From the NCBI GenBank assembly GCA_965221955.1, contig CBDCTA010000010.1, positions 1-12,356 on the forward strand: a DNA stretch of 12,356 nucleotides. Direction: 5' to 3'. This DNA comes from Gammaproteobacteria bacterium. Its GTDB lineage: Bacteria > Pseudomonadota > Gammaproteobacteria > UBA4575. The notes beneath the pieces are model-generated. The model ran no database searches, had not been told where the DNA came from, and saw only the letters and a program-made list of their open reading frames with translations. The translations under genes were made by a program, and so were the position numbers. Below, piece after piece: positions 1-12,356 of the stretch (position 1 is its first letter; every line of letters starts with the position of its first letter).

Positions 1-280
1 TTTTACCGCGTTTTAACGCAACAGTCCCTAGCAGAATATAAATTAGTAAGGCAACTATTTTTGCGTTGATCCATGTTGCTGGACCCGGATATTGCCCGCT
101 CAAAATTACTAATATTATTGCTGCCGTTAATAAAACAGTGTCATTTACATGTGGCACTACTTTTACCCACCTGTTTTCTAATAGACTAGACGAGCTCATC
201 ATCCATATTCCTCTAATCACAAATCCACTAATCGAAAAGATAGCAGTAGCAACATGAATGGCTTTTATTAATTCATACAT
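1..280 (-). CDS. SirB2/YchQ family inner-membrane protein (5' part; runs off the window edge)
   Basis: Not in the ORF track. My manual translation from ATG at 280 gives MYELIKAIHVATAIFSISGFVIRGIWMM...WVKVVPHVNDTVLLTAAIIL...WINAKIVALLIYILLGTVALKRGK with no stop. The K..H, PH..DT.LL and W...K...L..YI.LG..A motifs are typical of SirB2. Confidence 0.85.
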   Translation of the reverse strand, partial: MYELIKAIHVATAIFSISGFVIRGIWMMSSSSLLENRWVKVVPHVNDTVLLTAAIILVILSGQYPGPATWINAKIVALLIYILLGTVALKRGK

Positions 281-352
281 CGATATTTTTTACATTTAAT
301 ATTCGTTTAATTTTTCAAACTTAAAACATCGTCTACTCAACATAGCAACAAC

Positions 353-374
353 GTAACTGATATGCATCAGTTAC
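353..374. promoter_or_regulatory. Palindrome with FNR/DNR (CRP-FNR family)-like core CTGAT-N4-ATCAG
   Basis: GTAACTGAT-ATGC-ATCAGTTAC has perfect 9-bp arms. The core matches the FNR consensus TTGAT-N4-ATCAA at 8/10. It lies in the divergent sirB2/ompW intergenic region. Confidence 0.55.
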
Positions 375-469
375 ATCTATTTTTTCTGCTGTAATGACTT
401 TCTTTAGGATTAAATTGTTCTAGCTACCGCCCTTCCTATTTAGATATAAAAGCCCATAAAGTGTTTCAA

Positions 470-485
470 GCTGACACAAGTCAGC
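470..485. promoter_or_regulatory. Second FNR/DNR-like palindrome CTGAC-N4-GTCAG
   Basis: GCTGAC-ACAA-GTCAGC lies about 96 bp upstream of the ompW start and has the same geometry as the site at 357-370. Confidence 0.5.
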
Positions 486-581
486 AAAACATATGACTAG
501 CTTTGTTACGTTTTTAATCGAATATTAAATTCATAGAGTAATTAATTTTAAATCTTTAACAAAAAAAGCATGAAATAAATA

Positions 582-1256
582 ATGATCCAAATAGCACACT
601 TAAATAATTATAAATTTTTATTGTTAATAGTTTTCATTTCTATCACACCAGCAAGTTATGCCTATGATCAAGGCACTTGGTTTGCCAGAATCGGCCCCGC
701 ATTTATAGAGCCCAACGACAGTAGTAATGATGTGGATGGAATACCTAACACCGAAGTGGGTGTTGATAATGACGTCACATTAGGTTTCACAATCGGTTAT
801 ATGCTGACTTCGAGATTTGCAATTGAACTCTTAGGTGTTACCCCATCTACACATGACTTAAAAGGCAAGGATGGTCTAGGCGCATTAGGAAAAATTGCAG
901 ATGTAGATGTGTTTCCACCTACTTTATCACTACAGTATCATTTTAATGGATCCGCAAAATTCCATCCTTATATTGGAGCAGGATTTAATTACACACATTT
1001 TCCAGATGAAGACGTTTCTTCCTCGCTCGAAACCGCGCTTGGCGGTGACACAAAACTTGATATTGATGACTCTTGGGGGCTAGCTGCCCAAATCGGCACA
1101 GATATTTCTATAAATGAAAATTGGTTTTTTAACACTGCACTTTGGTATGTAGACATTGATGCCGATGCTACATTGAAAACCAATGGCGTACGCAGAGACG
1201 TGGATATCGATATCGACCCATGGGTATTTTTTGTAAGCATAGGTAGGAAGTTTTAA
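582..1256 (+). CDS. ompW: OmpW/AlkL family outer-membrane beta-barrel protein
   Basis: Signal peptide ending in AYA. OmpW motifs G.WFARIG...I.P, IELL...P..H, PPTLSLQYHF, PYIGAG.NYT, SWGLAAQIG.D and IDPWV are present, with a C-terminal Phe. Confidence 0.92.
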   Translation: MIQIAHLNNYKFLLLIVFISITPASYAYDQGTWFARIGPAFIEPNDSSNDVDGIPNTEVGVDNDVTLGFTIGYMLTSRFAIELLGVTPSTHDLKGKDGLGALGKIADVDVFPPTLSLQYHFNGSAKFHPYIGAGFNYTHFPDEDVSSSLETALGGDTKLDIDDSWGLAAQIGTDISINENWFFNTALWYVDIDADATLKTNGVRRDVDIDIDPWVFFVSIGRKF

Positions 1257-1340
1257 TTCTATTCAACCTATGTCTATTTTAGATAGAAGTTAACTCAAAA
1301 ATTCGACTTATTAATTTAACTTTATAGAAAGAAAAGAATA

Positions 1341-1709
1341 ATGGATCAAACCCTTTATGATGAACTTGGCGGGAAAGAAACTGTTGAAAAGGCAGCATAT
1401 TATTTATATGTGCATATATTAAATGATGACCGCATTAAGGATTTTTTTGAAAAAACAGATGTTGAATCACAACAAAGAAAAATGACTGCTTTTTTAACCT
1501 ACATTTTTGGCGGCCCATCTTTATATTTGGGAAAAGATATGCGTCGAGCGCACAAAGGGGCAGTAGAAGAAGGACTTAATGATGAACATGTTGATGCCAT
1601 GATGGAATGTGTAAAACAGTCCTTATCTGACCTTAATATTGGTAAAAATCAGACCACAAAAGTTATCGATGCTATCGAAAAGCATCGTGATGATGTGCTC
1701 TGCAGGTAA
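1341..1709 (+). CDS. Group I truncated (2/2) hemoglobin, trHbN-like
   Basis: LYDELGG, Tyr B10 (LYVHILND), CD1 Phe (DFFE), GGP..Y.G.DM..AH with proximal His; 122 aa. Confidence 0.9.
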   Translation: MDQTLYDELGGKETVEKAAYYLYVHILNDDRIKDFFEKTDVESQQRKMTAFLTYIFGGPSLYLGKDMRRAHKGAVEEGLNDEHVDAMMECVKQSLSDLNIGKNQTTKVIDAIEKHRDDVLCR

Positions 1710-1740
1710 TTAACTCAATTTGAATTGAAAAGGATTAATC

Positions 1741-1857
1741 ATGAGTGGAAAACATTTAGAAAATAGCCACACAAATCCAATAGTAACCGCATTTTGGGTA
1801 GTATTTATTATAGCGGCTGCTATTACTGTATTTGTAAATTTTCTTATCAGTTTATAA
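1741..1857 (+). CDS. Small single-pass membrane protein (38 aa), unannotated
   Basis: MSGKHLENSHTNPIVTAFWVVFIIAAAITVFVNFLISL*. An AAGGA Shine-Dalgarno lies just upstream. It fills the gap between the globin and the DsrC-like gene on the same strand. Confidence 0.6.
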   Translation: MSGKHLENSHTNPIVTAFWVVFIIAAAITVFVNFLISL

Positions 1858-1895
1858 CTTTAAATTCTAACTAATCCCAGCCAAAGGCATTTCAA

Positions 1896-2234
1896 ATGTC
1901 TCAGCAGATATCCTCAATGCCTATTAACATTGATAATGAAGGCTATCTAATTGACCCAGAAGAGTGGAATGAGGCATACGCTAGAGTTCTTGCTAGCAAG
2001 GAAGAGCTAGATCTTTCACCTGAGCATTGGAAAATCATTCAATTCATGCGTGATTATTACAATGATCACTTAACCGCTCCAGACTCTCGCTACGTAATTA
2101 AATATATTTCTGATGAGCTTAGTTATGGAAAGCAAGCAAAAAAACAGTTATTTAAATTATTTCCATATGGGTACGTCAAACAAGCTTGCAAAATTGCAGG
2201 AATGAAAAGACCAAGATCGTGGAGCACTGGATAG
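1896..2234 (+). CDS. TusE/DsrC/DsvC family sulfur-relay-like protein lacking the terminal Cys
   Basis: D.EGYL.DP.EW, L...HW.II.F.R.YY and LF.LFPYG..KQACKIAG are DsrC/TusE signatures. The C-terminus is RPRSWSTG instead of KP..CV. Confidence 0.88.
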   Translation: MSQQISSMPINIDNEGYLIDPEEWNEAYARVLASKEELDLSPEHWKIIQFMRDYYNDHLTAPDSRYVIKYISDELSYGKQAKKQLFKLFPYGYVKQACKIAGMKRPRSWSTG

Positions 2235-2268
2235 ATATATAACACAGGTTAAAATAGGAGATGTAAGT

Positions 2269-2298
2269 AATGTCTGCTTTCGGCCAATAGCGGACATT
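2269..2298. repeat. Palindromic site R1 (type A, core CGGCCA)
   Basis: AATGTCTGCT-TTCGGCCAAT-AGCGGACATT. It overlaps the TAA stop (2297-2299) of the 84-aa ORF. Confidence 0.9.
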
Positions 2299-2551
2299 AG
2301 GACTTATTTGTATTTCTATATTCAAACGAATCTAGCATGTAGTAAATACCTCCACCTATCCAGACTAAAGAAACTACCACAAACCAAAATGGATGTTCTT
2401 GAAAACAATGCAACCTATCAAATTCCCATCTTGGCAGTCGAACACATAAATCCTCATATTTATTTATTGAGTCACTAACTAAAATTATGTAGAAACCCAG
2501 AAACAAAACAGACCAAAATAAATTTTTTTTTGGTTTGAATTTGATATTCAT
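2297..2551 (-). CDS. Cassette ORF 4: hypothetical 2-TM membrane protein (84 aa)
   Basis: Two hydrophobic segments flank a loop with two Cys. The ORF is bounded by R1 (stop overlaps it) and R2 (ATG 7 nt away). Confidence 0.7.
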   Translation of the reverse strand: MNIKFKPKKNLFWSVLFLGFYIILVSDSINKYEDLCVRLPRWEFDRLHCFQEHPFWFVVVSLVWIGGGIYYMLDSFEYRNTNKS

Positions 2552-2558
2552 GAATTAT

Positions 2559-2588
2559 TATGTCTACTTTGGGTCGTTTGCGGTCATC
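2559..2588. repeat. Palindromic site R2 (type B, core GGGTCG)
   Basis: TATGTCTACT-TTGGGTCGTT-TGCGGTCATC. Confidence 0.85.
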
Positions 2589-2735
2589 TTATTCAGCAGG
2601 AACAACCTTGTAATATTTACCATCATCTGGAATTTGGAGCGGCATCAAGTCTCTTCCATAATAAATTACAAGTGCTAACCCAATCAAAGCTATACCAAGA
2701 ATTAAAATCCACTTTCTAGTTACTTTAATGCTCAT
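2589..2735 (-). CDS. Cassette ORF 3: 48-aa single-pass membrane protein, absent from the ORF track
   Basis: My manual translation is MSIKVTRKWILILGIALIGLALVIYYGRDLMPLQIPDDGKYYKVVPAE*. The TAA at 2589-2591 directly abuts R2 and the ATG is 15 nt from R3. Confidence 0.65.
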   Translation of the reverse strand: MSIKVTRKWILILGIALIGLALVIYYGRDLMPLQIPDDGKYYKVVPAE

Positions 2736-2750
2736 TTTTTGATGACTAAA

Positions 2751-2780
2751 AATGTACGCTTTGGGTCGTTAGCGGCCATA
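2751..2780. repeat. Palindromic site R3 (type B)
   Basis: AATGTACGCT-TTGGGTCGTT-AGCGGCCATA. Confidence 0.85.
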
Positions 2781-2832
2781 TTAAGTCTGATATTTTGAGA
2801 TTCCAACCAGATTTCCCTTTAGCGGTTTAATT

Positions 2833-2862
2833 TATGTCTGCTTTCGGCCAATAGTGGACATC
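2833..2862. repeat. Palindromic site R4 (type A)
   Basis: TATGTCTGCT-TTCGGCCAAT-AGTGGACATC. Confidence 0.9.
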
Positions 2863-2867
2863 CATAT

Positions 2868-3197
2868 CTAGAAATAACTTAGCCAAATCCCAGAGACAAC
2901 TAACAATATAAAACAAACGATAGCCCTTACAAGGTTCTTTCTTGTGTTTGATGCAATGGCCTTTATATTCTCATCCTTGGAGATCAGAAACTTTTTAGAT
3001 AGTAAATATTGAGACATTTGAAACGACCCTTGCCCAGTATTTATAAGGCTTGGAGGGCAGCCAAATTCTGCCCACGTTTTTACATCATGTTTTTTTAGGT
3101 GGCTTGATAGTTCTCCTGTCCCTTTCCCATATTGATAGGCAAAAATAAAAATCCCAATTAAGAAGGCTAAAAATAGTATGAGAGCAATAGTTTCCAT
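2868..3197 (-). CDS. Cassette ORF 2: 109-aa 2-TM membrane protein, possible remote UspB-like
   Basis: N- and C-terminal TM helices with a soluble middle (L...LKKHD...W...G......GQ....Y.....F....D). The stop is 5 nt from R4 and the ATG is 29 nt from R5. Confidence 0.72.
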   Translation of the reverse strand: METIALILFLAFLIGIFIFAYQYGKGTGELSSHLKKHDVKTWAEFGCPPSLINTGQGSFQMSQYLLSKKFLISKDENIKAIASNTRKNLVRAIVCFILLVVSGIWLSYF

Positions 3198-3226
3198 CCT
3201 AATTAAATAACTTTTAGTTTTGAGCG

Positions 3227-3256
3227 AATGTCCGCTTTGGGTCGGAAGCAGTCATT
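3227..3256. repeat. Palindromic site R5 (type B)
   Basis: AATGTCCGCT-TTGGGTCGGA-AGCAGTCATT. Confidence 0.9.
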
Positions 3257-3299
3257 TTCCTATTGTATGTAATTGATTCCACCCTATTTGATCCTATTT

Positions 3300-3329
3300 T
3301 ATGTCTGCTTTCGGCCAAAAGCAGTCATT
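3300..3329. repeat. Palindromic site R6 (type A)
   Basis: TATGTCTGCT-TTCGGCCAAA-AGCAGTCATT. It contains the TGA stop (3325-3327) of the 97-aa ORF. Confidence 0.9.
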
Positions 3330-3618
3330 CTAATTTCAGCGATATGAGTTTTTTATAAACAAAAATCGTGACAATACAGGTAAAAAATAAAGTGAAAATA
3401 AAAAATAGAGTTTCCGACCTGAAAACGTTTCCAAAAATTGCTCCAAATATCATCCATACAAGTGGAAAACCAATAAAAATATAAAGCGTAGAGTAGAAAT
3501 CACTATATCTTTTTACAAGCTTTGAGTTACAACTAGGACATGTAATTCTGTCTTTATATTTGTCGTCCTCAGTTTTATTTTCCCAAGTAACTTTCAAAGA
3601 ACAATTTGGGCACTTCAT
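3325..3618 (-). CDS. Cassette ORF 1: CxxC-x20-CxxC zinc-ribbon protein with two TM helices (97 aa)
   Basis: CPNC (aa 3-6) and CPSC (aa 27-30) are exactly 20 residues apart and are followed by a long hydrophobic region. This fits the cxxc_20_cxxc family description. Confidence 0.75.
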   Translation of the reverse strand: MKCPNCSLKVTWENKTEDDKYKDRITCPSCNSKLVKRYSDFYSTLYIFIGFPLVWMIFGAIFGNVFRSETLFFIFTLFFTCIVTIFVYKKLISLKLE

Positions 3619-3651
3619 AATGTATTTTTTATAAATAAATCTTGGGAAAAA

Positions 3652-3681
3652 AATGTCTGCTTTGGGTCGTAAGCGGACATT
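3652..3681. repeat. Palindromic site R7 (type B)
   Basis: AATGTCTGCT-TTGGGTCGTA-AGCGGACATT. Confidence 0.9.
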
Positions 3682-3745
3682 CTAATAAAAGAAATATTGA
3701 ATCTGAAGCAACCTCCTTGTTGCACCTCATATTCGCCCATCCATG

Positions 3746-3775
3746 GACTCACACTTTGGGTCGTAAGCGGATATC
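3746..3775. repeat. Degenerate or half site R8 (type B core plus right arm; left arm replaced)
   Basis: GACTCACA-CTTTGGGTCGTAAGCGGA-TATC. Positions 3754-3771 are identical to R7 over 18 bp. Confidence 0.75.
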
Positions 3776-3809
3776 TTAAAATTAGGTATTTCTAATTTTT
3801 TCGCAAAAT

Positions 3810-4544
3810 TCATGACCATTCCATGCTTTCAATATGTCTTCGTAATTGGCCTGCAGTTTTAAATTTTTTTAAAATTAAATTTGATTTTAGGCCACAGCAA
3901 ATATACTTGATTGGATCAGGATGCTTTGCATAGTGCTTAGCTCCACCTAATGACTCATGAAACACTTGAATCAAAGTTAAAATATCAAATCTACGGCTTT
4001 CATGTTTAGGTTCTTTTGCAGAAAACAAATCAACTAATTTCAAATCAAATTCTAAGCCAAATTTATTGACGATGACATTATCGGAATGCAAATCTCCGTG
4101 ATATTCATTCAGGCTATGTATGCACTCGATACCTTGAGTTAATGCATAGAGCAAATGCAATGCTTGATAAGGGGTAAGACGTTTACCGGGAAAGCTTTTA
4201 ATAAATTCAGAAAGCAGTTGTCCCTCAACATACTCAGAGATTAGAACTGTAACTGGAGTTCTTTTAAAAACAAAATTCTCTTTTGTGTGGTACTGAATCA
4301 GTATTGGACATTGTCTGAGTTTATGCAGCTTTTGTGCATTAAACTTTACCGCTCGATCCTTTTCATTGCGATTGGGATAAAATAATTTGGCTGCGCGCTC
4401 AATCCCTGTGCTAATTTCACGTATTTTATACACTTCACCTTCAAACCCGCCACCTAGCTTAGAAAGCACCTCATACTTCTTTGCAATAATGCGACCAGCA
4501 GGTAAATTAAATTCAGTAAATTTTGCTTTGGTAGGTCGAGGCAT
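3810..4544 (-). CDS. Minimal eukaryotic-like (Hanks-type fold) protein kinase
   Basis: Gly-rich loop LGGGFEGEVY, AAK catalytic Lys, SEYVEG hinge, HGDLHSDN catalytic loop, and DLF in place of DFG. Confidence 0.8.
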   Translation of the reverse strand: MPRPTKAKFTEFNLPAGRIIAKKYEVLSKLGGGFEGEVYKIREISTGIERAAKLFYPNRNEKDRAVKFNAQKLHKLRQCPILIQYHTKENFVFKRTPVTVLISEYVEGQLLSEFIKSFPGKRLTPYQALHLLYALTQGIECIHSLNEYHGDLHSDNVIVNKFGLEFDLKLVDLFSAKEPKHESRRFDILTLIQVFHESLGGAKHYAKHPDPIKYICCGLKSNLILKKFKTAGQLRRHIESMEWS

Positions 4545-4574
4545 TTTTTATAATTTTCTTATTCATACTTATTG

Positions 4575-5066
4575 TTATTTTTTTGGATAATCAAAATCCA
4601 AAAGCTTACCTGAATGTTCTGTTATGGATTCCCAACTATTTATATCAAACTGAATCTGTGCAATTGCGCAGGTCGGCATATTATCTATTTCAGCGTTAGA
4701 TAGATAGTTGCATAAAACCGTAAAGCCTGGATTATGACCAACTAACATCACACGATGTAAATTATCGTCCAAACCTGCAACCAGGTCTATTAATGTATTC
4801 AAACTTGCTTCATAAATTTTTTCATTACGATCAACCTTTTGAATATTAAATTCAATTTCACTTGCAATAAATTCTGCAGTGGTAATCGCTCTCACAGCAG
4901 GGCTTGAAATAATACTGTCCACCAAATAATTTTCATCAGCAAGGCGCTTACCCATCTCTGGCGCATTTTTTAACCCTCGGCTATTTAAAGGCCGCTCGAA
5001 ATCGCTCAAGTTCGCATCGTTCCAGCTTGACTTAGCATGGCGCACTAAAGTTAATACACGTTTCAT
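4575..5066 (-). CDS. sixA: SixA-like phosphohistidine phosphatase (histidine phosphatase superfamily)
   Basis: LVRHAKSSW, D.ERPL..RG, SSPA.RA..TA and LVGHNPG motifs. I prefer the ATG at 5066 over the TTG at 5072. Confidence 0.85.
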   Translation of the reverse strand: MKRVLTLVRHAKSSWNDANLSDFERPLNSRGLKNAPEMGKRLADENYLVDSIISSPAVRAITTAEFIASEIEFNIQKVDRNEKIYEASLNTLIDLVAGLDDNLHRVMLVGHNPGFTVLCNYLSNAEIDNMPTCAIAQIQFDINSWESITEHSGKLLDFDYPKK

Positions 5067-5068
5067 CT

Positions 5069-5992
5069 TCAAATATCTAGCTTATTGGGACGTAATTTTA
5101 ACGTCATACAGCGCCCCACAAAAAATAACCAAATGAACAAAACACAAGCTAATCCAAACATGGAAGCAAAATCTCTAAATCGAGTATGTACATGATACCG
5201 CTCAACTTGAATGGTGTGATTGTCAGTAAATATTCCTTGTAGTGAAATCAGCGAACTACTCTCTACTTCAGCATCAAAACCTTGCAAGTTTATGATTTCA
5301 CCGTACGAAGTTTTAATTTTATGCTCGTTATAAGTTTGTAAATAAATATTTCTATCAATTTCAATCTTTTTGCCTGTTCTATTTTCCAAATCTTTTAATG
5401 TTGCGATGAAGTGATTGTCCGCAGCATATACAGATTGAGTAAAAACAACTGGCGACATTAACCAAGCGGATAGCAAAACGGCACTCAAAATAATAGTTTT
5501 GATCGATATATTAAATTCTTCGCAATTTGCTTGAATTGACTTTTTGAAATTAAAAATAAAATAAATTAAACCTAAAATAGTTAAGACATAAGTTGCAAAA
5601 CTCTCTGGCCAAAAGAGATCAAACCTTAGTAACTCCCAATTTACTGGAGCCAATAATTGCGCACCATTGGCCCATTTGATTTGTGTCGCATCTAATAATA
5701 AATGCAACAAAGACCCAATCAACAAAATAATAAAAACTTTACTACGTTGTTTGGCCAACATAGAAAAGCTCATGCATAGCAAAATGCAAAATAAAAGTGA
5801 TGATTGTGTAATGCAGTACGCACGCAGATCATATAAGTCTATGGAGAGAGGTAACTTTTTAATAATACGTTGCACTATCCAAGGTAAATCAGGAATTACA
5901 CAAGCTAGATAAATCCATTTAAAATCTGCATGTGTAAAAACTGTCCTCGTGGATAGACCATTTATAGCAAAATGTGCAATCGTGTTTGGCAT
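5069..5992 (-). CDS. Membrane-bound metal-dependent hydrolase (YdjM-like) with C-terminal extension
   Basis: N-terminal His (PNTIAH), PDLPW and HLLLD motifs, multiple TM helices, and a soluble beta-rich segment before the last TM. Confidence 0.65.
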   Translation of the reverse strand: MPNTIAHFAINGLSTRTVFTHADFKWIYLACVIPDLPWIVQRIIKKLPLSIDLYDLRAYCITQSSLLFCILLCMSFSMLAKQRSKVFIILLIGSLLHLLLDATQIKWANGAQLLAPVNWELLRFDLFWPESFATYVLTILGLIYFIFNFKKSIQANCEEFNISIKTIILSAVLLSAWLMSPVVFTQSVYAADNHFIATLKDLENRTGKKIEIDRNIYLQTYNEHKIKTSYGEIINLQGFDAEVESSSLISLQGIFTDNHTIQVERYHVHTRFRDFASMFGLACVLFIWLFFVGRCMTLKLRPNKLDI

Positions 5993-6019
5993 TTATCTCG
6001 AGCACACTTACGCTTTGCG

Positions 6020-6586
6020 CTATTTCCCTAATAACTCATTTTTTAAGTTCTGCTGTACTGGCACATCGCCTAACCAAATACCAAATAACGCAGAAGAAAA
6101 CGCTTTGTTTTCAATCACTCCAAGCTCATCACCGTTTTTTAAAACATGTGTGACATTATGTGGAATAAAGGCAAATTCAAATACGTCGCCTTTTTTAATT
6201 GGTTGCTTAAGCCATGACAAAAATGTTTCGATTTCAGCTTCTATTGGTGCTGTATTGCCCTGTGTTGAGCTTTCAAAGCCTTCTCGCGTAGCTTTGATCA
6301 TTTTCTTCGATGTGATTTTTGAAGAAGTAATATATAAGCGCATACATGAAGCTTGGGACATTTGAAGAAAATGGCTCGCATCCGTTGTTTTTTCTTGCAC
6401 ATATAATGACGCGGTATAAAGCTTGATGAATAGTTTTTTTCGTATACCAAAACCATTCAATTGTAGTTCTTGGTCAGCACATGTAGCCGTTTGCGAAATG
6501 ACTACTTTATTTGCGTCAGCTGCAAACGAAACCGAAAAACTAGATAGTGCAATTAAAATGATTAGTAAAAGAATTCTATGCAACAT
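6020..6586 (-). CDS. Secreted/periplasmic chalcone-isomerase-fold protein
   Basis: Signal peptide (SFA|A), L.LNG.G.R.KLFIK.Y.A.LY and F..ALF.IWLGD.P....LK..LLG motifs. The ATG at 6586 has an AGGTGG SD-like sequence upstream; the GTG at 6595 is an alternative start. Confidence 0.85.
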   Translation of the reverse strand: MLHRILLLIILIALSSFSVSFAADANKVVISQTATCADQELQLNGFGIRKKLFIKLYTASLYVQEKTTDASHFLQMSQASCMRLYITSSKITSKKMIKATREGFESSTQGNTAPIEAEIETFLSWLKQPIKKGDVFEFAFIPHNVTHVLKNGDELGVIENKAFSSALFGIWLGDVPVQQNLKNELLGK

Positions 6587-6686
6587 GATAAACACCCACC
6601 TGATTAACGATTGCTAACGTTACCCATGACAAGAATATCCTAGCATGAATAATCATCAGTAATTATGATGATGGGAATACACAAAT

Positions 6687-7277
6687 TTAGCTACTTGCGC
6701 GTGCTTTTTTACCTAAATATCCACCATGATGGCGCTTTCCAAAGTCTTCCGCGCTGAAGCCTTTCAGTTCCATTAGCAGTAAAGCAAGTGCATCACTCAT
6801 CGCTAACATCACTGCCATACTTGAAGTCGGTGTAAGACCTGTTTGGCAAGCCTCTTTTATAATGCCCATATCCAATACGACATCACTGAGCTCACGTAAT
6901 TCAGAATCGGGATGTGAAGTAATTCCTATTACAGTATGCAGACCCAATCCACGTCCTGCAGCTAGAGTATCTAAAACTTCTTTCGTTTTACCGCTGGTAG
7001 AAAACGCTACAATGGCATCATTCTCTTCAATTAGACCTAAATCTCCATGCGCAGCTTCGCCAGGATGAAGAAATGATGCTGGGGTTCCAGTGGAGCATAA
7101 TGTTGCAGAAAACTTATGCGCAATATGGCCCGCTTTACCCATACCCGTAGTGAGCACCTTGCCTTTACAACCCTGAAGAATATGCACTGCACGCTCAAAT
7201 TCATCATTCACTGGTATGGATGAAATTGCTTTTGCCTCTTGTGCAAAAATTTCTCTAACTCTGTCTTTAATATCCAC
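6687..7277 (-). CDS. SIS-domain sugar-phosphate isomerase, KdsD/KpsF/GutQ-like, without CBS domains
   Basis: TGMGKAGHIA.K..AT..STGTP..FLHPGEA.HGDLG, STSG.T.E, PTSS...MLA..DALA and F...H.GG.LG motifs. The protein ends right after the SIS domain. Confidence 0.85.
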   Translation of the reverse strand: MDIKDRVREIFAQEAKAISSIPVNDEFERAVHILQGCKGKVLTTGMGKAGHIAHKFSATLCSTGTPASFLHPGEAAHGDLGLIEENDAIVAFSTSGKTKEVLDTLAAGRGLGLHTVIGITSHPDSELRELSDVVLDMGIIKEACQTGLTPTSSMAVMLAMSDALALLLMELKGFSAEDFGKRHHGGYLGKKARASS

Positions 7278-7414
7278 TAATTCGCTATTCTCTATTGGCT
7301 AATACTATAAAATCCGGTCATAAAGCTAAGGAATACTTAACAAACTATCCTGTTTTGCAATTTTTCAACTATAGCAAATAATTGTGTATACGATGAAATA
7401 ACATATATATTTTT

Positions 7415-8233
7415 ATGTTTATTAAATTATTTTTAGCCATCACGTTATTTTACTTGGCTGCAATGATAGCAATTTATTTTGCTCAGGCGATGTTTATCTA
7501 TGCACCACATATGCCAACTCGAGACATTGTAGCCAGCCCTAGTGATATTGGACTTAATTATGAGAATCTAAACTTAATAACGTCTGATAAAGAAAAAATT
7601 CATGCTTGGTACATTCCTGCATCTACTGAAACATCTTTAACAGTATTATTTTTACATGGCAATGCGGGTAATATTTCACATCGTTTAGAAACAATAAAAA
7701 TTTTCAACCACTTGGGTTTAAATTTTTTAATCTTTGATTATCGTGGTTTTGGAAAAAGTACTGGCAAACCAAGCGAACAAGGCACATATCTTGATGCGGA
7801 TACCGCTTGGCAATACTTAATTGAGGAAAAAAATTTACGTCCTGACCAAATCATTATTGCAGGACGTTCTCTTGGAGGAGGTGTAGCAGCAGAATTAGCC
7901 AAAGAAGTGCAACCTGCGATGTTAATTCTAGAGTCTACTTTTACTTCGATGACTGAAGTATCTGCAAAACATTATCCTTTCATGCCCACAAGTTTAATTG
8001 TTAAGCATGAATATGAAACATTTTATAAATTAAAAGATATTCACTGCCCAATTGTAATCGCACATAGTAAAAGTGATGAAGTAATCCCCTACGAGCATAG
8101 TCAGCGCAACTTTACAATCGCAAATGAACCAAAAAAATTTATAGAGTTACAGGGTGGACATGGTAATGGATTTTTGTTTTCCATAAATAATTATATAGGC
8201 GGTTTACAACAGGCTCTACGAGAAATGCTTTAG
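7415..8233 (+). CDS. Membrane-anchored alpha/beta hydrolase (ABHD13/Bem46-like)
   Basis: N-terminal TM, HGNAGN, DYRGFG.S.G.PSE.G, nucleophile GRSLGG, D.VIP and GGH. Confidence 0.88.
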   Translation: MFIKLFLAITLFYLAAMIAIYFAQAMFIYAPHMPTRDIVASPSDIGLNYENLNLITSDKEKIHAWYIPASTETSLTVLFLHGNAGNISHRLETIKIFNHLGLNFLIFDYRGFGKSTGKPSEQGTYLDADTAWQYLIEEKNLRPDQIIIAGRSLGGGVAAELAKEVQPAMLILESTFTSMTEVSAKHYPFMPTSLIVKHEYETFYKLKDIHCPIVIAHSKSDEVIPYEHSQRNFTIANEPKKFIELQGGHGNGFLFSINNYIGGLQQALREML

Positions 8234-8239
8234 GATTAT

Positions 8240-9130
8240 TTACTTTCCCTGTATTGGGTTAGAGATTTTCCCAATTCCTTCTACCTCACATTCCACTACA
8301 TCACCTGGCATTAAATATTCAGGCGGATTACGCACATACCCTACACCACTTGGTGTGCCGGTAGCGATAATGTCACCAGCTTCTAATGTCATTCCTTTTG
8401 AAAGGGTCTCGATTACGGTCGCCACATCAAAAATTTGATATTTAGTATTAGAATCTTGTTTTAAATCACCATTGACCCAACTTTTTAAATCTAAATTTTG
8501 TGGGTCCGCTATTTCGTCCTTGGTTACAATCCATGGTCCCATTGGACAGGCACCCGTAAAACTCTTGCCCACGAAAAATTGTTTATGACGCTTTTGATAA
8601 TCACGTGCTGAAATATCGTTAATAATGCTGTAACCAAATACATGATCCAAAGCATTTTCTTTACTGATTCCATCCCCATCTTTGCCAATGATCACTGCTA
8701 ATTCCACCTCCCAATCCATTTTATTAGAAACCTCTAAATCAACCGAAATTGCAGAAAATGGACCGTTCATACTCGATGCAGCCTTGGTAAAAATAATGGG
8801 GTATTTAGGTAATTTTGGTGCTTCCAGCGCTTTGCCACTAGTTTCCTCGACATGTTCGATATAGTTCCAACCCAGACACATAATATTCTGCCGTGGTCGC
8901 GGAATTGGTGATATAAGCTCTACCTTTGACAGTGGCAACCATTGCTGAGAATCGGTATCTGCAACTAATTCTTGTAGCGCCTGTAAGGATTTATCGCCAG
9001 CATCGATCAACTGTAGCATGCTATTGACTTGTCCAGACCAATCTTTGTGCTTGGCTGGAAGGAATACTGAATCATCTTGCACAACAGCAAGATACGTTTG
9101 ATCATTGTATTTACATGTAGCGATACGCAT
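8240..9130 (-). CDS. Fumarylacetoacetate hydrolase (FAH) family protein
   Basis: CLGWNY.EH, P.IFTK, DWEVELAVIIGK, ND.SARD.Q, GKSF...CPMGP and GDIIATGTPSGVG motifs. The ATG at 9130 (MRIATC) is more plausible than the track start at 9187. Confidence 0.9.
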   Translation of the reverse strand: MRIATCKYNDQTYLAVVQDDSVFLPAKHKDWSGQVNSMLQLIDAGDKSLQALQELVADTDSQQWLPLSKVELISPIPRPRQNIMCLGWNYIEHVEETSGKALEAPKLPKYPIIFTKAASSMNGPFSAISVDLEVSNKMDWEVELAVIIGKDGDGISKENALDHVFGYSIINDISARDYQKRHKQFFVGKSFTGACPMGPWIVTKDEIADPQNLDLKSWVNGDLKQDSNTKYQIFDVATVIETLSKGMTLEAGDIIATGTPSGVGYVRNPPEYLMPGDVVECEVEGIGKISNPIQGK

Positions 9131-9220
9131 TTTAATAATGAAAAAGGAAGTTTGAAAAATATATTGTAGCGATAACCAACACCGCAAACTAGCAATATAT
9201 TTAGCCTAACTTATTTAAAA

Positions 9221-11350
9221 ATGAAAAAAATAATTATCTTATTTGTTATTTTAATTTTAGCTGCCTGTTTTTTTATTTTTGACTTGCATCAGTACTTAGA
9301 CTTCTCATACATAAAATCAAAACAACTGGCAATTGCTGATTATTACCAAGCCAACCCCACACAAAGCATTTTATTATTTTTTATAATTTATATATTAGTT
9401 ACAAGTTTTTCGATCCCTGGAGCAAGTATTTTATCTTTGCTTGCTGGAGCGATATTCGGATTGTTGTTGGGAAGCATTCTAGTAATATTTGGCGCTACAA
9501 TTGGAGCCACCATCGCTTTTTGGCTAGCACGATACTTATTGGGAAATAGTATTCAAGAAAGGTACGCAGATAAATTAAAAACAATCAATGCGGGAATAGA
9601 GAAAGACGGTGCATTTTATTTATTAACACTTCGACTCATCCCAATATTTCCGTTCTTTGTGATAAATGTGTTGATGGGACTCACACCCATGCGCACTATC
9701 ACATATGTGTTAACAAGTTTTTTCGGAATGCTTGCCGGCACAATAATTTACGTAAATGTTGGCACCCAACTCGCGAACCTTGAATCAGTTAGCGGAATTT
9801 TAACCCCCAAAATTTGGGGTGCTTTTATTCTACTTGCGATTTTTCCTTGGGTTGCAAAACTCATTATCAATATCATTAAGTCAAAACGTATTTATAAAGG
9901 CTTTAACAAACCAAAAAGTTTTGACTACAACCTCGCCGTCATCGGCGCGGGTTCTGCTGGCTTAGTGTCCTCTTATATAGCCGCTGCAGTAAAAGCCAAG
10001 GTAGTGCTGATTGAAAAACATAAGATGGGCGGTGACTGCTTAAACACAGGTTGTGTTCCTTCTAAAGCATTAATACGCTCAGCAAAATTTGTGTCACATG
10101 TACATAAAGCACAAAAATATGGCTGTAAAACTGCCAATGTAGAATTTGATTTTAAAGATGTTATGAACCGTGTTCAAAACGTTATTAAAGATATCGAACC
10201 ACATGATTCAATTGAACGATACACCGACTTAGGCGTTGAATGCATTCAAGGAGAAGCTAAATTATTAGATCCTTGGACCATTGAGGTAAATGGCCAGACA
10301 CTTACAAGTAAGAATATTATTCTTGCAACAGGCGCCGAACCTTTTGTTCCACCCATTCCAAGTTTAGACCAAGCTCCATTCCTTACTTCAGATACGATTT
10401 GGAATTTACAAGAGCTGCCTAAAAATATGGTTGTGCTAGGAGGCGGCCCTATCGGTTGCGAACTTGCACAAAGCTTTGCTCGACTAGGCGCAAAGGTAAG
10501 CTTAGTCGAAATGGCACCGCGCATTATGCTAATGGAAGATCCCGAAATAGCAGAAATGGTAGAACAGAGTTTAAGAAGTGATGGCGTTAATCTATTAACT
10601 AACCACACTGCGAGTGAAGTTCAACAAAACGCAGGAGCTTATACGCTGGTATGTAAAAGTGATAATAATGAATTATTGTTACCATTTGATACTTTATTAG
10701 TTGCTGTCGGGCGTAAAGCACGAGGAAGTGACGTTTGGACAGAAAACTTAAATCTTGAACTGCGCAAAAACGGAACCATAGAAGTGAATGAATATTTACA
10801 AACAAATTATCCAAACATTTATGCTTGTGGCGATGTAACGGGTCCTTATCAACTTACCCACACTGCAGCGCACCAAGCTTGGTATACCAGCGTGAATTCT
10901 CTATTTGGCTGTTTTAAAAAGTTTCGTGTTGACTACTCAGTTATTCCATGGTGCACCTTTACAGAGCCAGAAGTAGCACATGTTGGGATAAACGAAACTC
11001 AAGCCCAAGCAGAGAACATTGAATACGAAGTAACACGTTTTGATATAGCAGAATTAGATCGGGCCATTGCAGATGGTGAAGCACACGGTATTATTAAGGT
11101 GCTTACAATACCTGGAAAAGATAAAATATTAGGCGTCACCATTGTAGGTGATCATGCAGGTGACTTAATAAGTGAATATGTGAGCGCGATGAAACACGGT
11201 TTAGGATTAAATAAAATATTGGGCACTATTCATATCTACCCCACTCTTGCTGAGGCGAATAAATATGCTGCGGGGGAATGGAAACGTGCGCATGCGCCAA
11301 AACGTTTATTGGAATGGGTGCAAAAGTTCCATGCTTACATGCGTAAATAA
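9221..11350 (+). CDS. DedA/TVP38 (VTT) membrane domain fused to an FAD-dependent pyridine nucleotide-disulfide oxidoreductase
   Basis: The first ~215 aa form a TVP38/SNARE-associated domain (PGA..L.L.AGA.FG, LRLIP.FPF..IN). It is followed by GAGSAG, redox-active GGDCLNTGCVPSK, GGGPIGCE, GD, FTEPE and HIYPTLAE. Confidence 0.9.
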   Translation: MKKIIILFVILILAACFFIFDLHQYLDFSYIKSKQLAIADYYQANPTQSILLFFIIYILVTSFSIPGASILSLLAGAIFGLLLGSILVIFGATIGATIAFWLARYLLGNSIQERYADKLKTINAGIEKDGAFYLLTLRLIPIFPFFVINVLMGLTPMRTITYVLTSFFGMLAGTIIYVNVGTQLANLESVSGILTPKIWGAFILLAIFPWVAKLIINIIKSKRIYKGFNKPKSFDYNLAVIGAGSAGLVSSYIAAAVKAKVVLIEKHKMGGDCLNTGCVPSKALIRSAKFVSHVHKAQKYGCKTANVEFDFKDVMNRVQNVIKDIEPHDSIERYTDLGVECIQGEAKLLDPWTIEVNGQTLTSKNIILATGAEPFVPPIPSLDQAPFLTSDTIWNLQELPKNMVVLGGGPIGCELAQSFARLGAKVSLVEMAPRIMLMEDPEIAEMVEQSLRSDGVNLLTNHTASEVQQNAGAYTLVCKSDNNELLLPFDTLLVAVGRKARGSDVWTENLNLELRKNGTIEVNEYLQTNYPNIYACGDVTGPYQLTHTAAHQAWYTSVNSLFGCFKKFRVDYSVIPWCTFTEPEVAHVGINETQAQAENIEYEVTRFDIAELDRAIADGEAHGIIKVLTIPGKDKILGVTIVGDHAGDLISEYVSAMKHGLGLNKILGTIHIYPTLAEANKYAAGEWKRAHAPKRLLEWVQKFHAYMRK

Positions 11351-11375
11351 ATAATACATTCAATAAAAATCTATA

Positions 11376-12338
11376 ATGCATGAAACTATACACTTATTAA
11401 AAAAGACTGATTTCCCAAGCATTGTTCGTAACAGACTAGAAACATTGCAAGTCAATCTGGGCTATAAATGCAATCAAACCTGCACACATTGTCATGTCAA
11501 TGCAGGACCAAAGCGCAAAGAAATGATGACAGCAGACAATGTTGCAGTTGTTATTGATTATTTACGTGCACAAGAAATACGTATCTTAGACCTTACGGGT
11601 GGTGCACCTGAGTTACATCCACAGTTTAGAGAAATTATTCAATCAGCTAGAACTTTAGGCGTTCACGTGATGGATCGATGCAACTTAACTGTATTGGAGG
11701 AACCAGACCAAGAAGATACAGCACAATTTTTAGCTCAACACCAAGTTGAAATTGTCGCTTCTCTACCCTGTTATTTAGAAGAAAATGTGGATAAACAACG
11801 TGGTAAAGGTGTATTTGAAAAAAGTATCCGCGGCCTTAAAGCACTCAATGTACTGGGTTACGGAAAAGGTAATAAAAATTTAAAGCTTACTCTTGTGTAC
11901 AACCCACAAGGACCACAATTACCCCCTTCTCAGCAGAGCTTAAAACAAGATTACCGCAAATTTTTAACTGATAATTTTGATATCAGTTTCGATGAACTTT
12001 ACACCATCACTAACATGCCTATTCAACGCTTTGGCAGCATGCTTATTAGCAAAGGAAAATTTGAGGAATACATGCAATTACTGCGTGATGCGTACAGCAC
12101 AGAAAACCTTGAGTTTGTCATGTGTCGTTCTATGATCAGCGTGGATTGGCAAGGTTATACATATGATTGTGACTTTAACCAAATGTTAGGTCTTACTCTC
12201 CCTCATAATGATCAAATTCGCACACATTTATCAGAGCTAATTAATATTGATTTAAAAAATAATGCCATTACTGTGGCAGATCATTGTTATGGTTGTACCG
12301 CAGGGCAAGGGAGTAGCTGTGGTGGTGCATTTAATTAA
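11376..12338 (+). CDS. arsS: ArsS-like radical SAM protein (arsenosugar biosynthesis / Cys-rich C-terminal family)
   Basis: CNQTCTHC (CxxxCxxC), DLTGGAPE, ASLPCY, MC...ISVDW.G..YDCDFNQ and C-terminal HCYGCTAGQGSSCGG. Confidence 0.85.
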   Translation: MHETIHLLKKTDFPSIVRNRLETLQVNLGYKCNQTCTHCHVNAGPKRKEMMTADNVAVVIDYLRAQEIRILDLTGGAPELHPQFREIIQSARTLGVHVMDRCNLTVLEEPDQEDTAQFLAQHQVEIVASLPCYLEENVDKQRGKGVFEKSIRGLKALNVLGYGKGNKNLKLTLVYNPQGPQLPPSQQSLKQDYRKFLTDNFDISFDELYTITNMPIQRFGSMLISKGKFEEYMQLLRDAYSTENLEFVMCRSMISVDWQGYTYDCDFNQMLGLTLPHNDQIRTHLSELINIDLKNNAITVADHCYGCTAGQGSSCGGAFN

Positions 12339-12356
12339 ATTCTTGGGCTAATCCTT

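Follow-up and report, generated by a model that had tools for sequence, protein, structure and literature searches.

Two described arrangements of short, repeated near-palindromes resemble the elements considered here. On Acinetobacter plasmids, 28-bp pdif sites with an 11-6-11 geometry bound single-gene modules, and two orientations or types of the site alternate along the DNA. In Escherichia coli, bacterial interspersed mosaic elements (BIMEs) and REPINs, which are built from repetitive extragenic palindromes (REPs), consist of palindromes of two types set in doublets with a conserved linker. Here we describe a 28-nt near-palindrome, likewise of two types, in a 12,356-nt contig (CBDCTA010000010.1, assembly GCA_965221955.1) of a gammaproteobacterium of the UBA4575 lineage. 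This contig, referred to as the window at its full length, is C10 of a 2.69-Mb, 29-contig genome (G000; 96.6% complete, contamination estimate 4.3%). The explanation that we favor, with about even confidence, is that the 28-nt elements are recombination sites of an integron-like but integron-independent cassette system, and that they are orphans in this genome.

Eight copies, R1 to R8, lie in the window (Table 1). A sequence-only reading of this DNA had singled out R6 (3301–3328), and its description agreed with ours: R6 reads ATGTCTGCTTT-CGGCCA-AAAGCAGTCAT, its arms are complementary at 10 of 11 positions, and the eight copies fall into two classes by their 6-bp centers. The center is CGGCCA (class A) in R1, R4 and R6 and GGGTCG (class B) in R2, R3, R5, R7 and R8. 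R8 keeps only the center and the right arm; its left arm reads ACTCACA, and we denote this form B*. The pattern GCTTTSGGYCR, with up to one mismatch, matched the window 10 times where 0.76 matches were expected, and 0 of 200 shuffles reached 10; the matches are the eight sites, the opposite strand of R6 and one unrelated position. The eight-site observation is confirmed, far beyond chance. The intervals that the same reading had listed for excision are also placed as it said, with R2 and R3 flanking a 48-aa open reading frame (ORF) and the intervals R3–R5, R4–R6 and R5–R7 each spanning one ORF plus a linker. Its proposal that class A is an inverted relative of class B is supported by a mirror-image polymorphism, in which A varies in its left arm and B in its right arm, and by doublets in Lysobacter dokdonensis, whose partner center, CGACCC, reads exactly as GGGTCG on the opposite strand. 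In class A the palindromy extends into the center (GGCC), and the 11-6-11 split is therefore not unique.

In a scan of the genome with the two consensus 28-mers, 163 loci matched with up to 8 mismatches, and 149 with up to 6. Among the 163, the center is GGGTCG in 71, CGGCCA in 48 and another sequence, mostly a one-letter variant, in 44. Free variation of the centers in a larger sample had been set beforehand as the refuting test; in the 149 copies (67 of class A and 82 of class B) they did not vary freely, each position being 87–99% conserved. The centers are strongly constrained, though not strictly invariant within each class as had been claimed from the eight copies. TTT at positions 9–11 was fixed in 149 of 149 copies, a figure for which the scan itself partly selected.

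The sites form at least eight arrays, on contigs C5, C23, C11, C26 (two), C29, C14 and C10, and these share a common grammar. Read in the orientation of the sites, the usual order is A, a gene of 300–1500 bp, B, a short linker and A again. The 25 B-linker-A doublets have linkers of 31 nt (2), 43–45 nt (13) or 54–55 nt (10), and 23 of them carry CCAAC about 23 nt after B. A different doublet, composed of B, 66 nt and B* with its ACTCACA left arm, stands at the array end beside a conserved upstream gene; this terminal doublet is a unit of ~118 nt that recurs at 89–93% identity at five loci, including C14:4198, C23:23274, C22:167005 and C29:609583. The gene runs antiparallel to the sites in 63 of the 69 inter-site intervals that hold an ORF (binomial p = 4e-13), and 41 of 70 intervals are flanked by A and then B. 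The cargo includes GNAT acetyltransferases, OsmC, HSP20, M48 and M23 peptidases, SnoaL, DUF1428, Rieske and HAD proteins, cyanase and many ORFans; no transposase or recombinase was found among it. A promoter or terminator role of the sites was rejected, since promoter-like signals (8 versus 7.4 expected) and terminator-like signals (2 versus 1.0) were not enriched and none fell at a site. A search of window positions 2100–3950 against all Rfam families, with E up to 10, returned a chance leader match only.

The content of the arrays differs between strains, and the differences are bounded by the sites. At least two loci are present in the assembly as two haplotypes with near-identical flanks and wholly different cassette arrays; two haplotypes per locus indicate that the bin is a mixture of closely related strains. 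At the first locus, window positions 1–2258 and 3652–12356 match C29 (C29:123675–138671) at 98.7% and 99.7% identity, and in place of positions 2259–3651, with four cassettes, C29 has 4036 bp of unrelated cassettes. The alleles diverge from right after the A site R1 to the first base of the B site R7. The second locus extends from lptFG to xerD (C14:4100–7345 compared with C23:10824–23489) and holds 1.5 kb with three cassettes in C14 versus 11 kb in C23. The parts common to both alleles are bounded by the terminal doublet and, at the opposite end, by an A site. This boundary A site is wholly inverted between the alleles (C23:12285–12312 versus C14:5857–5884); the alleles share an identical flank as far as the site and diverge 3 nt past it, which shows that the 28-mer is a discrete unit. 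The two alleles differ in lptF as well, which is a single 355-aa ORF in that of C23 (24991–26058) and two ORFs of 171 and 138 aa in that of C14 (1530–2598).

Further comparisons place the edges of shared DNA at the sites. A cassette for an M23 peptidase is present in two arrays (C26:69643–70422 and C5:1534–756, 85.6% identity over 780 nt), and the homology spans the first base of A to within B. In related species, the window locus holds one cassette in G010 and nothing in G001; in G014 and G011 it has a degenerate B alone, next to the kinase gene. Among the matches listed for the window array in 56 family genomes, all lie in its three doublets, at 72–93% identity and in 27 of the 56 genomes, and none is to cassette DNA. 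Some B sites are split exactly at the center, with GGTCG on both sides of an insert of 45–95 nt (C3:18089, C17:40236 and C22:41244), as conservative insertion at the center would be expected to leave them. A small repeat, acagaaaattgctcc...ccatccatgg, 45–95 nt long and sometimes nested, occupies B centers at these three positions and at C29:609572, and partly resembles the 66-nt linker of the terminal doublet.

A candidate enzyme came from other bacteria. In Lysobacter dokdonensis, about 25 sites are packed into 25 kb, with both centers and in both orientations, and inside this cluster lies a gene for a 204-aa protein that consists of a phage-integrase catalytic domain only (PF00589, 3e-20). 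We named this protein SXR. Its best matches to named profiles are partial ones to Xer models, far below cut-off. The family is large, with 8000 of 8000 scored candidates at E <= 1e-10; the best 120 members are nearly all 201–209 aa long and 68–90% identical, two being shorter or less similar. An alphaproteobacterial metagenome-assembled genome (MAG) encodes a 55%-identical SXR beside a palindrome cluster; it carries 146 palindromes of a wider family, with the same arms and other loops. Palindromes lie within 4 kb of an SXR gene in seven genomes (G333, G465, G303, G318, G340, G240 and G095), and SXR was not found in three genomes with only 0–2 family palindromes.

We scored 78 metagenome loci carrying SXR, the flanks of 43 having been read first. 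Upstream of the gene, TGGCCG or GGGTCG followed by GTTAGCGAC stood at a fixed distance, with a mode of 82 nt, in 46 of 73 loci, and an inverted copy of the site lay 25–60 nt downstream in 57 of 73; both sides had one in 40 of 68, and control windows of the same loci contained the motif in 163 of 2811 cases. The pairs of centers, given as upstream and reverse complement of downstream, were TGGCCG/TGGCCG (16), GGGTCG/TGGCCG (5), GGGTCG/GGGTCG (2) and TGGCCG/GGGTCG (2), the rest being one-letter variants. These are the two classes of the window, here set between ATGTCCGCTTT-like and TTAGCG-like arms, and the order GGGTCG then CGGCCA, seen in five SXR loci, is that of the B-linker-A doublet. A position-weight matrix built from the sites of this genome gave 17 matches in 12 of the 78 loci and 0 in reversed controls. 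In the upstream site the outer arm is variable and often ATGTCCGCTTT-like, and the inner arm is GTTAGCGAC. An inner arm that moves with the gene and an outer arm that varies would fit hybrid sites made by exchange at a GGCC center. If a symmetric target (...CTTTT-GGCC-AAAAG...) exchanged with an element site that is also symmetric (...CTAAC-GGCC-GTTAG...), one side would be left with TGGCCG and the opposite one with CGGCCA. Two other features of the SXR loci were recorded. In L153–L230 a conserved hairpin, AGCGACGGTC-loop-GACCGTCGCT, precedes the downstream site, and in L157 and L158 the same host flank adjoins opposite ends of the element, as insertion in either orientation or inversion would leave it.

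The sites themselves are common in the family and scattered beyond it. A strict 21-nt pattern was found in 18 of 24 other family genomes and in 13 of the 14 members of the genus, in 4 to 109 copies and with 0 control matches; of 400 genomes drawn from across the phylum, only 6 have it. Yet at least 118 stretches of the species-representative collection contain the 22-mer ATGTCCGCTTTGGGTCGTTAGC without mismatch, at a local GC content of 38–63%. The contigs are labeled Woeseiaceae, Nitrospina, Caulobacteraceae, Xanthobacteraceae, alphaproteobacterial MAGs and others, although bin labels of MAGs can be wrong; the isolates include Lysobacter dokdonensis, Billgrantia saliphila and Oleiagrimonas sp. 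Single sites are also present in contigs labeled Nitrospinota. Viral contigs have the strict pattern in 23 stretches, many of them at the end of the contig; a 6.5-kb contig of the viral collection (IMGVR_UViG_3300009177_000849) has it near both ends, in opposite orientation. In the plasmid collection, blastn with the doublet returned two 27-nt Xanthomonas matches with nothing annotated. A survey of listings, abstracts and passages in the open literature yielded no description of such sites or of a palindrome-flanked recombinase that consists of a catalytic domain only, passages of PMC8138268 included, and a full-text search for four literal 13–16-mers of the sites returned no paper.

The sequence-only reading is partly supported by these results. 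Discrete, polar, duplex-type sites that bound cassettes are what we find, and its link to tyrosine recombinases is supported by the gene family that the same two centers flank elsewhere; our results do not support identity with dif or pdif, strict invariance or the exact crossover point. In the mechanism that we favor, each site is a near-palindrome predicted to bind a protein, with a few asymmetric positions (the center and positions 6, 10, 18–19, 23 and 25) giving it polarity. A single accessory gene lies between A and B in one orientation, neighboring cassettes are joined by B, the conserved linker and A, and the B-66nt-B* doublet marks the array end beside a conserved upstream operon. Cassettes would be gained, lost and swapped through breakage and rejoining at the sites, leaving arrays hypervariable between strains. 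Because genes of the SXR family lie between inverted sites with both centers in other bacteria, this widespread, uncharacterized Xer-like family of ~200 aa, with a catalytic domain only, would be the likeliest source of the cognate enzyme. Our searches of this genome and of 24 family genomes found no SXR, so the sites are orphans here; they may be served in trans, or by another enzyme (XerC/XerD), or they may be a legacy that is turned over partly through homologous recombination. More tentatively, and with clearly less than even confidence, we suggest a new cassette system of the Pseudomonadota, in which SXR acts on 28-bp sites of two classes that behave like attL/attR hybrids of a symmetric attB and a symmetric attP, and in which the sites of the marine lineage have multiplied to give many chromosomal arrays that turn over among co-existing strains without a resident recombinase. 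Such turnover, if true, would call for supply in trans or for co-option of XerC/XerD.

Several observations weigh against this explanation. A crossover confined to the center cannot give a boundary site that is wholly inverted beside an identical flank. Strain breakpoints, which the sequence-only reading expected in the core, do fall at sites in two independent allele pairs, but they are resolved to the 28-mer only and not to the 6-bp center. No excision circle, empty site or recombinant junction was found, the public Logan contigs on the window representing repeat cross-mapping only, and no product of AxA or BxB exchange was seen directly. The joints in the Logan contigs have unknown sequence between them and speak neither for nor against excision; the homology of other copies starts and stops at the edges of the 28-mer. 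Arm variants showed no significant difference between linker-facing and cassette-facing positions (p = 0.1–0.2). As to the enzyme, a hidden Markov model of 120 SXR members, run over all ORFs of at least 60 aa in this genome, recovered only XerC, two XerD and a phage-type integrase, and the families searched gave no candidate encoded in the genome besides XerC and XerD. A search with a single SXR protein of 24 of the 56 family genomes, 18 of which carry sites, and of 5 site-rich marine MAGs returned weak matches only (E 1e-8 to 1e-5, 25–30% identity), those listed being at loci of XerC/XerD size. At 96.6% completeness one gene could have been missed here; that it was missed across all relatives is unlikely. 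Sites occur without SXR in G377, G374, G449, G147 and G220, and a strict scan of the fetched sequence found a full family palindrome, with at most one arm mismatch, in 9 of the 78 SXR loci. The co-occurrence of SXR and sites in the 400-genome sample (family palindromes in 17 of 58 SXR-positive versus 29 of 342 SXR-negative genomes; odds ratio 4.5, p = 4e-5) is confounded by GC content, genome size and kinship, and the reversed control pattern also occurs in large GC-rich genomes.

The alternative that survives best, doubtful as we consider it, is that the elements are extragenic palindromes of the REP/BIME kind. They would then have structural or regulatory roles, such as binding nucleoid proteins or gyrase or marking gene boundaries, and shuffling would be a by-product of homologous recombination between repeats of 28–110 nt and of allelic replacement through the conserved flanks, with no need of a dedicated enzyme. 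The high copy number, the intergenic position, the imperfect palindromy, the two types and the doublets with a conserved linker all suit this idea, as does the failure to find a dedicated recombinase in the genome or the family. Replacement through the flanks would also give exactly what the allele pairs show, namely whole arrays and a boundary site that differ between identical flanks, and doublets 75–86% identical across genera are similar enough for RecA-type exchange; the R3–R4 segment of the window matches doublets of other genera at 76–86% identity. Lineage-specific REPs, however, would not be expected to keep the same 22–28-mer and the same centers in hosts of 38–63% GC across classes, and no RAYT (REP-associated tyrosine transposase) gene was found in the genome. 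The fixed distances at which the same centers flank a recombinase gene family, the inserts placed exactly at the center between two copies of GGTCG, and the strict gene polarity together with the lack of terminator- or promoter-like enrichment at the sites also argue against REPs.

An unlikely alternative is that the arrays are Xer-dependent modules like those of Acinetobacter, with the host XerC and XerD acting on 11-6-11 sites and with A and B as the two orientations. The 28-bp length, the 11-6-11 layout and the single-gene modules between alternating site types agree with it, the largest array lies 1 kb from xerD, and the best partial profile matches of SXR itself are to Xer models. The lineage shares no tyrosine recombinases, and indeed no recombinases, other than XerC and XerD. 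The PF00589 matches in this genome are XerD (two allelic copies beside dsbC), XerC and one 437-aa integrase. The likeness to dif and pdif sites that the sequence-only reading had pointed out stands for the geometry and fails for the arms. The canonical dif-like site of the genome, ACTTCGCATAATATATATTATGTTAAAT at C4:59807–59834 on the minus strand, has arms unrelated to ATGTCCGCTTT / AAAGCGGACAT, and in G010 xerD lies at 1.265 Mb with none of the listed doublet matches of that genome near it. The dif-like site is ~5 kb from a small cluster of 28-mers. Two further enzymes were set aside as candidates, the 437-aa integrase (C29:2595), which is found in 2 of 56 family genomes, and the sole large serine recombinase (C26, at 86 kb), which adjoins a terminase-like gene.

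Very improbable, in our estimate, is the hairpin alternative that the sequence-only reading had raised, in which the sites would be recognized as single strands by an HUH enzyme (RAYT or IS200/IS605-like) and the center would be a conserved loop. R6 and R7 do fold modestly as DNA (−6.1 kcal/mol, z = −3.7, and −6.5 kcal/mol, z = −4.7), and the layout of the doublets resembles that of REPINs. R5, in contrast, folds no better than its shuffles (−2.5 kcal/mol, z = −0.77), and neither strand pairs both classes. Many class B copies pair poorly, with T-T at positions 4/25 in 47 of 82, T-T at 11/18 in 73 of 82 and a C-A mismatch at 6/23 in 34; the remaining 6/23 counts in this class include 35 C-G and 4 T-A, the T-A number being what independence predicts, and class A has 33 C-G, 24 T-G and 4 T-A. 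We ran the covariation check proposed for the arms and saw no compensatory changes in A or B, so binding of the duplex by a protein is favored over a hairpin. The arms appear to be conserved as sequence rather than as pairs, which favors a sequence-specific protein on duplex DNA. A long B:A hairpin over the doublet was rejected, pairing there being no better than within the sites and doublet folds not consistently exceeding shuffles. The Y1 family of RAYT and IS200 transposases (PF01797) had 0 matches in this genome and matches in 6 of 14 control genomes; the IS110, rve, DDE_Tnp_1 and Transposase_31 families had no match in the genome.

Least credible of all is the view that the doublets are unusual attC sites and the arrays integron cassettes without an integrase (clusters of attC sites lacking integron integrases, CALINs), for although the co-oriented, mostly promoterless single genes are of typical cassette types (GNAT, SnoaL, DUF1428, OsmC and ORFans) and a doublet, in which two simple sites are inverted and the center varies, recalls the description of attC as two simple sites, the distribution of the integron integrase (TIGR02249, scoring over the cut-off in 6 of 41 relatives) does not follow that of the sites, the enzyme being present in the one genus member without the strict pattern (G013) and absent from the 13 that have sites (G000 included), in the G013 integron (G013:C20:36000–48005) the 3 kb downstream of intI contain three classical attC-like brackets (at ~6682, 7617 and 8612 of that segment) and none of the 28-nt sites, and the arrays of this genome contain a single RYYYAAC...GTTRRRY bracket in 47,206 nt.

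The features of the window array are listed in Table 1. None of its four cassette ORFs has a Pfam family above cut-off, and the terminal doublet, at the array end, adjoins the 3' end of the kinase gene. Read by eye from their translations, two further ORFs of the window resemble known types: a 709-aa ORF (9221–11350), membrane-like in its N-terminal part and like a pyridine-nucleotide-disulfide oxidoreductase in its C-terminal part, is followed by a 320-aa ORF (11376–12338) with a radical-SAM-like CxxxCxxC motif. Elsewhere in the genome, the gene for formate-tetrahydrofolate ligase (C26:76526–78228) is split into two ORFs of 230 and 318 aa, for which a frameshift, a pseudogene or an assembly error is possible.

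Table 1 Sites, cassettes and flanking genes of the array in the window
Feature	Position	Strand	Remark
DsrC-like gene	1896..2234	+	Conserved left flank, 98.7% identical to C29
R1, class A, ATGTCTGCTTT-CGGCCA-ATAGCGGACAT	2270..2297	+	Left boundary of the strain-variable segment; divergence from C29 right after it
Cassette ORF, 84 aa	2297..2551	-	Stop abuts R1
R2, class B, center GGGTCG	2560..2587	+	
Cassette ORF, 48 aa	2589..2735	-	Between two B sites
Doublet: R3 (B, 2752–2779), 54-nt linker with TTCCAACC, R4 (A, 2834–2861)	2752..2861	+	
Cassette ORF, 109 aa	2868..3197	-	
Doublet: R5 (B, 3228–3255), 45-nt linker, R6 (A, 3301–3328)	3228..3328	+	
Cassette ORF, 97 aa	3325..3618	-	Weak zinc-ribbon matches below cut-off; stop inside R6
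Terminal doublet: R7 (B, 3653–3680), 66-nt linker, R8 (B*, 3747–3774)	3653..3774	+	Right boundary of the variable segment
Protein-kinase-domain gene	3810..4544	-	Conserved right flank, co-directional with the cassette genes

If these elements are true recombination sites, they would provide a second, integron-independent way to stockpile and swap single accessory genes at many loci, and would explain part of the strain-level variation in gene content of this marine lineage. The link to SXR would give a family of more than 8000 proteins, 204–208 aa long and of high identity, a function and a defined 28-bp target, and the pair of site and enzyme would be compact for testing. Arrays of this kind would probably be overlooked by annotation pipelines based on IntI or attC.

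Compared with known systems, the arrays resemble those of integrons in several respects. Both have co-oriented, mostly single-gene and often ORFan cassettes, a composite separator of ~90–110 nt, hypervariability between strains and a distinct site at the array end beside the upstream gene. Unlike integron arrays, those described here show no correlation with IntI, lack attC brackets, conserve sequence rather than fold and occur many to a chromosome, with no resident integrase or attI-intI platform found. With pdif modules they share 28-bp sites with two inverted 11-bp arms and a 6-bp center, single-gene modules and alternating types. The differences lie in arms unrelated to the genome's dif, in chromosomal arrays at multiple loci, in conserved linkers between modules, and in two distinct center classes where pdif has one site in two orientations. 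The elements are like REP, BIME and REPIN-RAYT systems in that imperfect palindromes occur between genes in high copy number and are joined into inverted doublets by a short linker, and in that inverted copies of the repeat enclose an enzyme gene, for our elements in other taxa. That enzyme, however, belongs to the phage-integrase family (PF00589) and not to the HUH Y1 transposases, and here the repeat is conserved across classes, shows no pairing covariation and bounds strain-variable cassettes. Finally, SXR recalls invertases of the FimB/FimE type in being ~200 aa long, in having a catalytic domain only and in being encoded between inverted sites. Its match to the model of tyrosine-type DNA invertases reaches ~22–23 bits versus a cut-off of 222, the Xer models giving the best partial matches, and, unlike the targets of those invertases, SXR-type sites number tens to hundreds and are near-palindromes of 28 bp.

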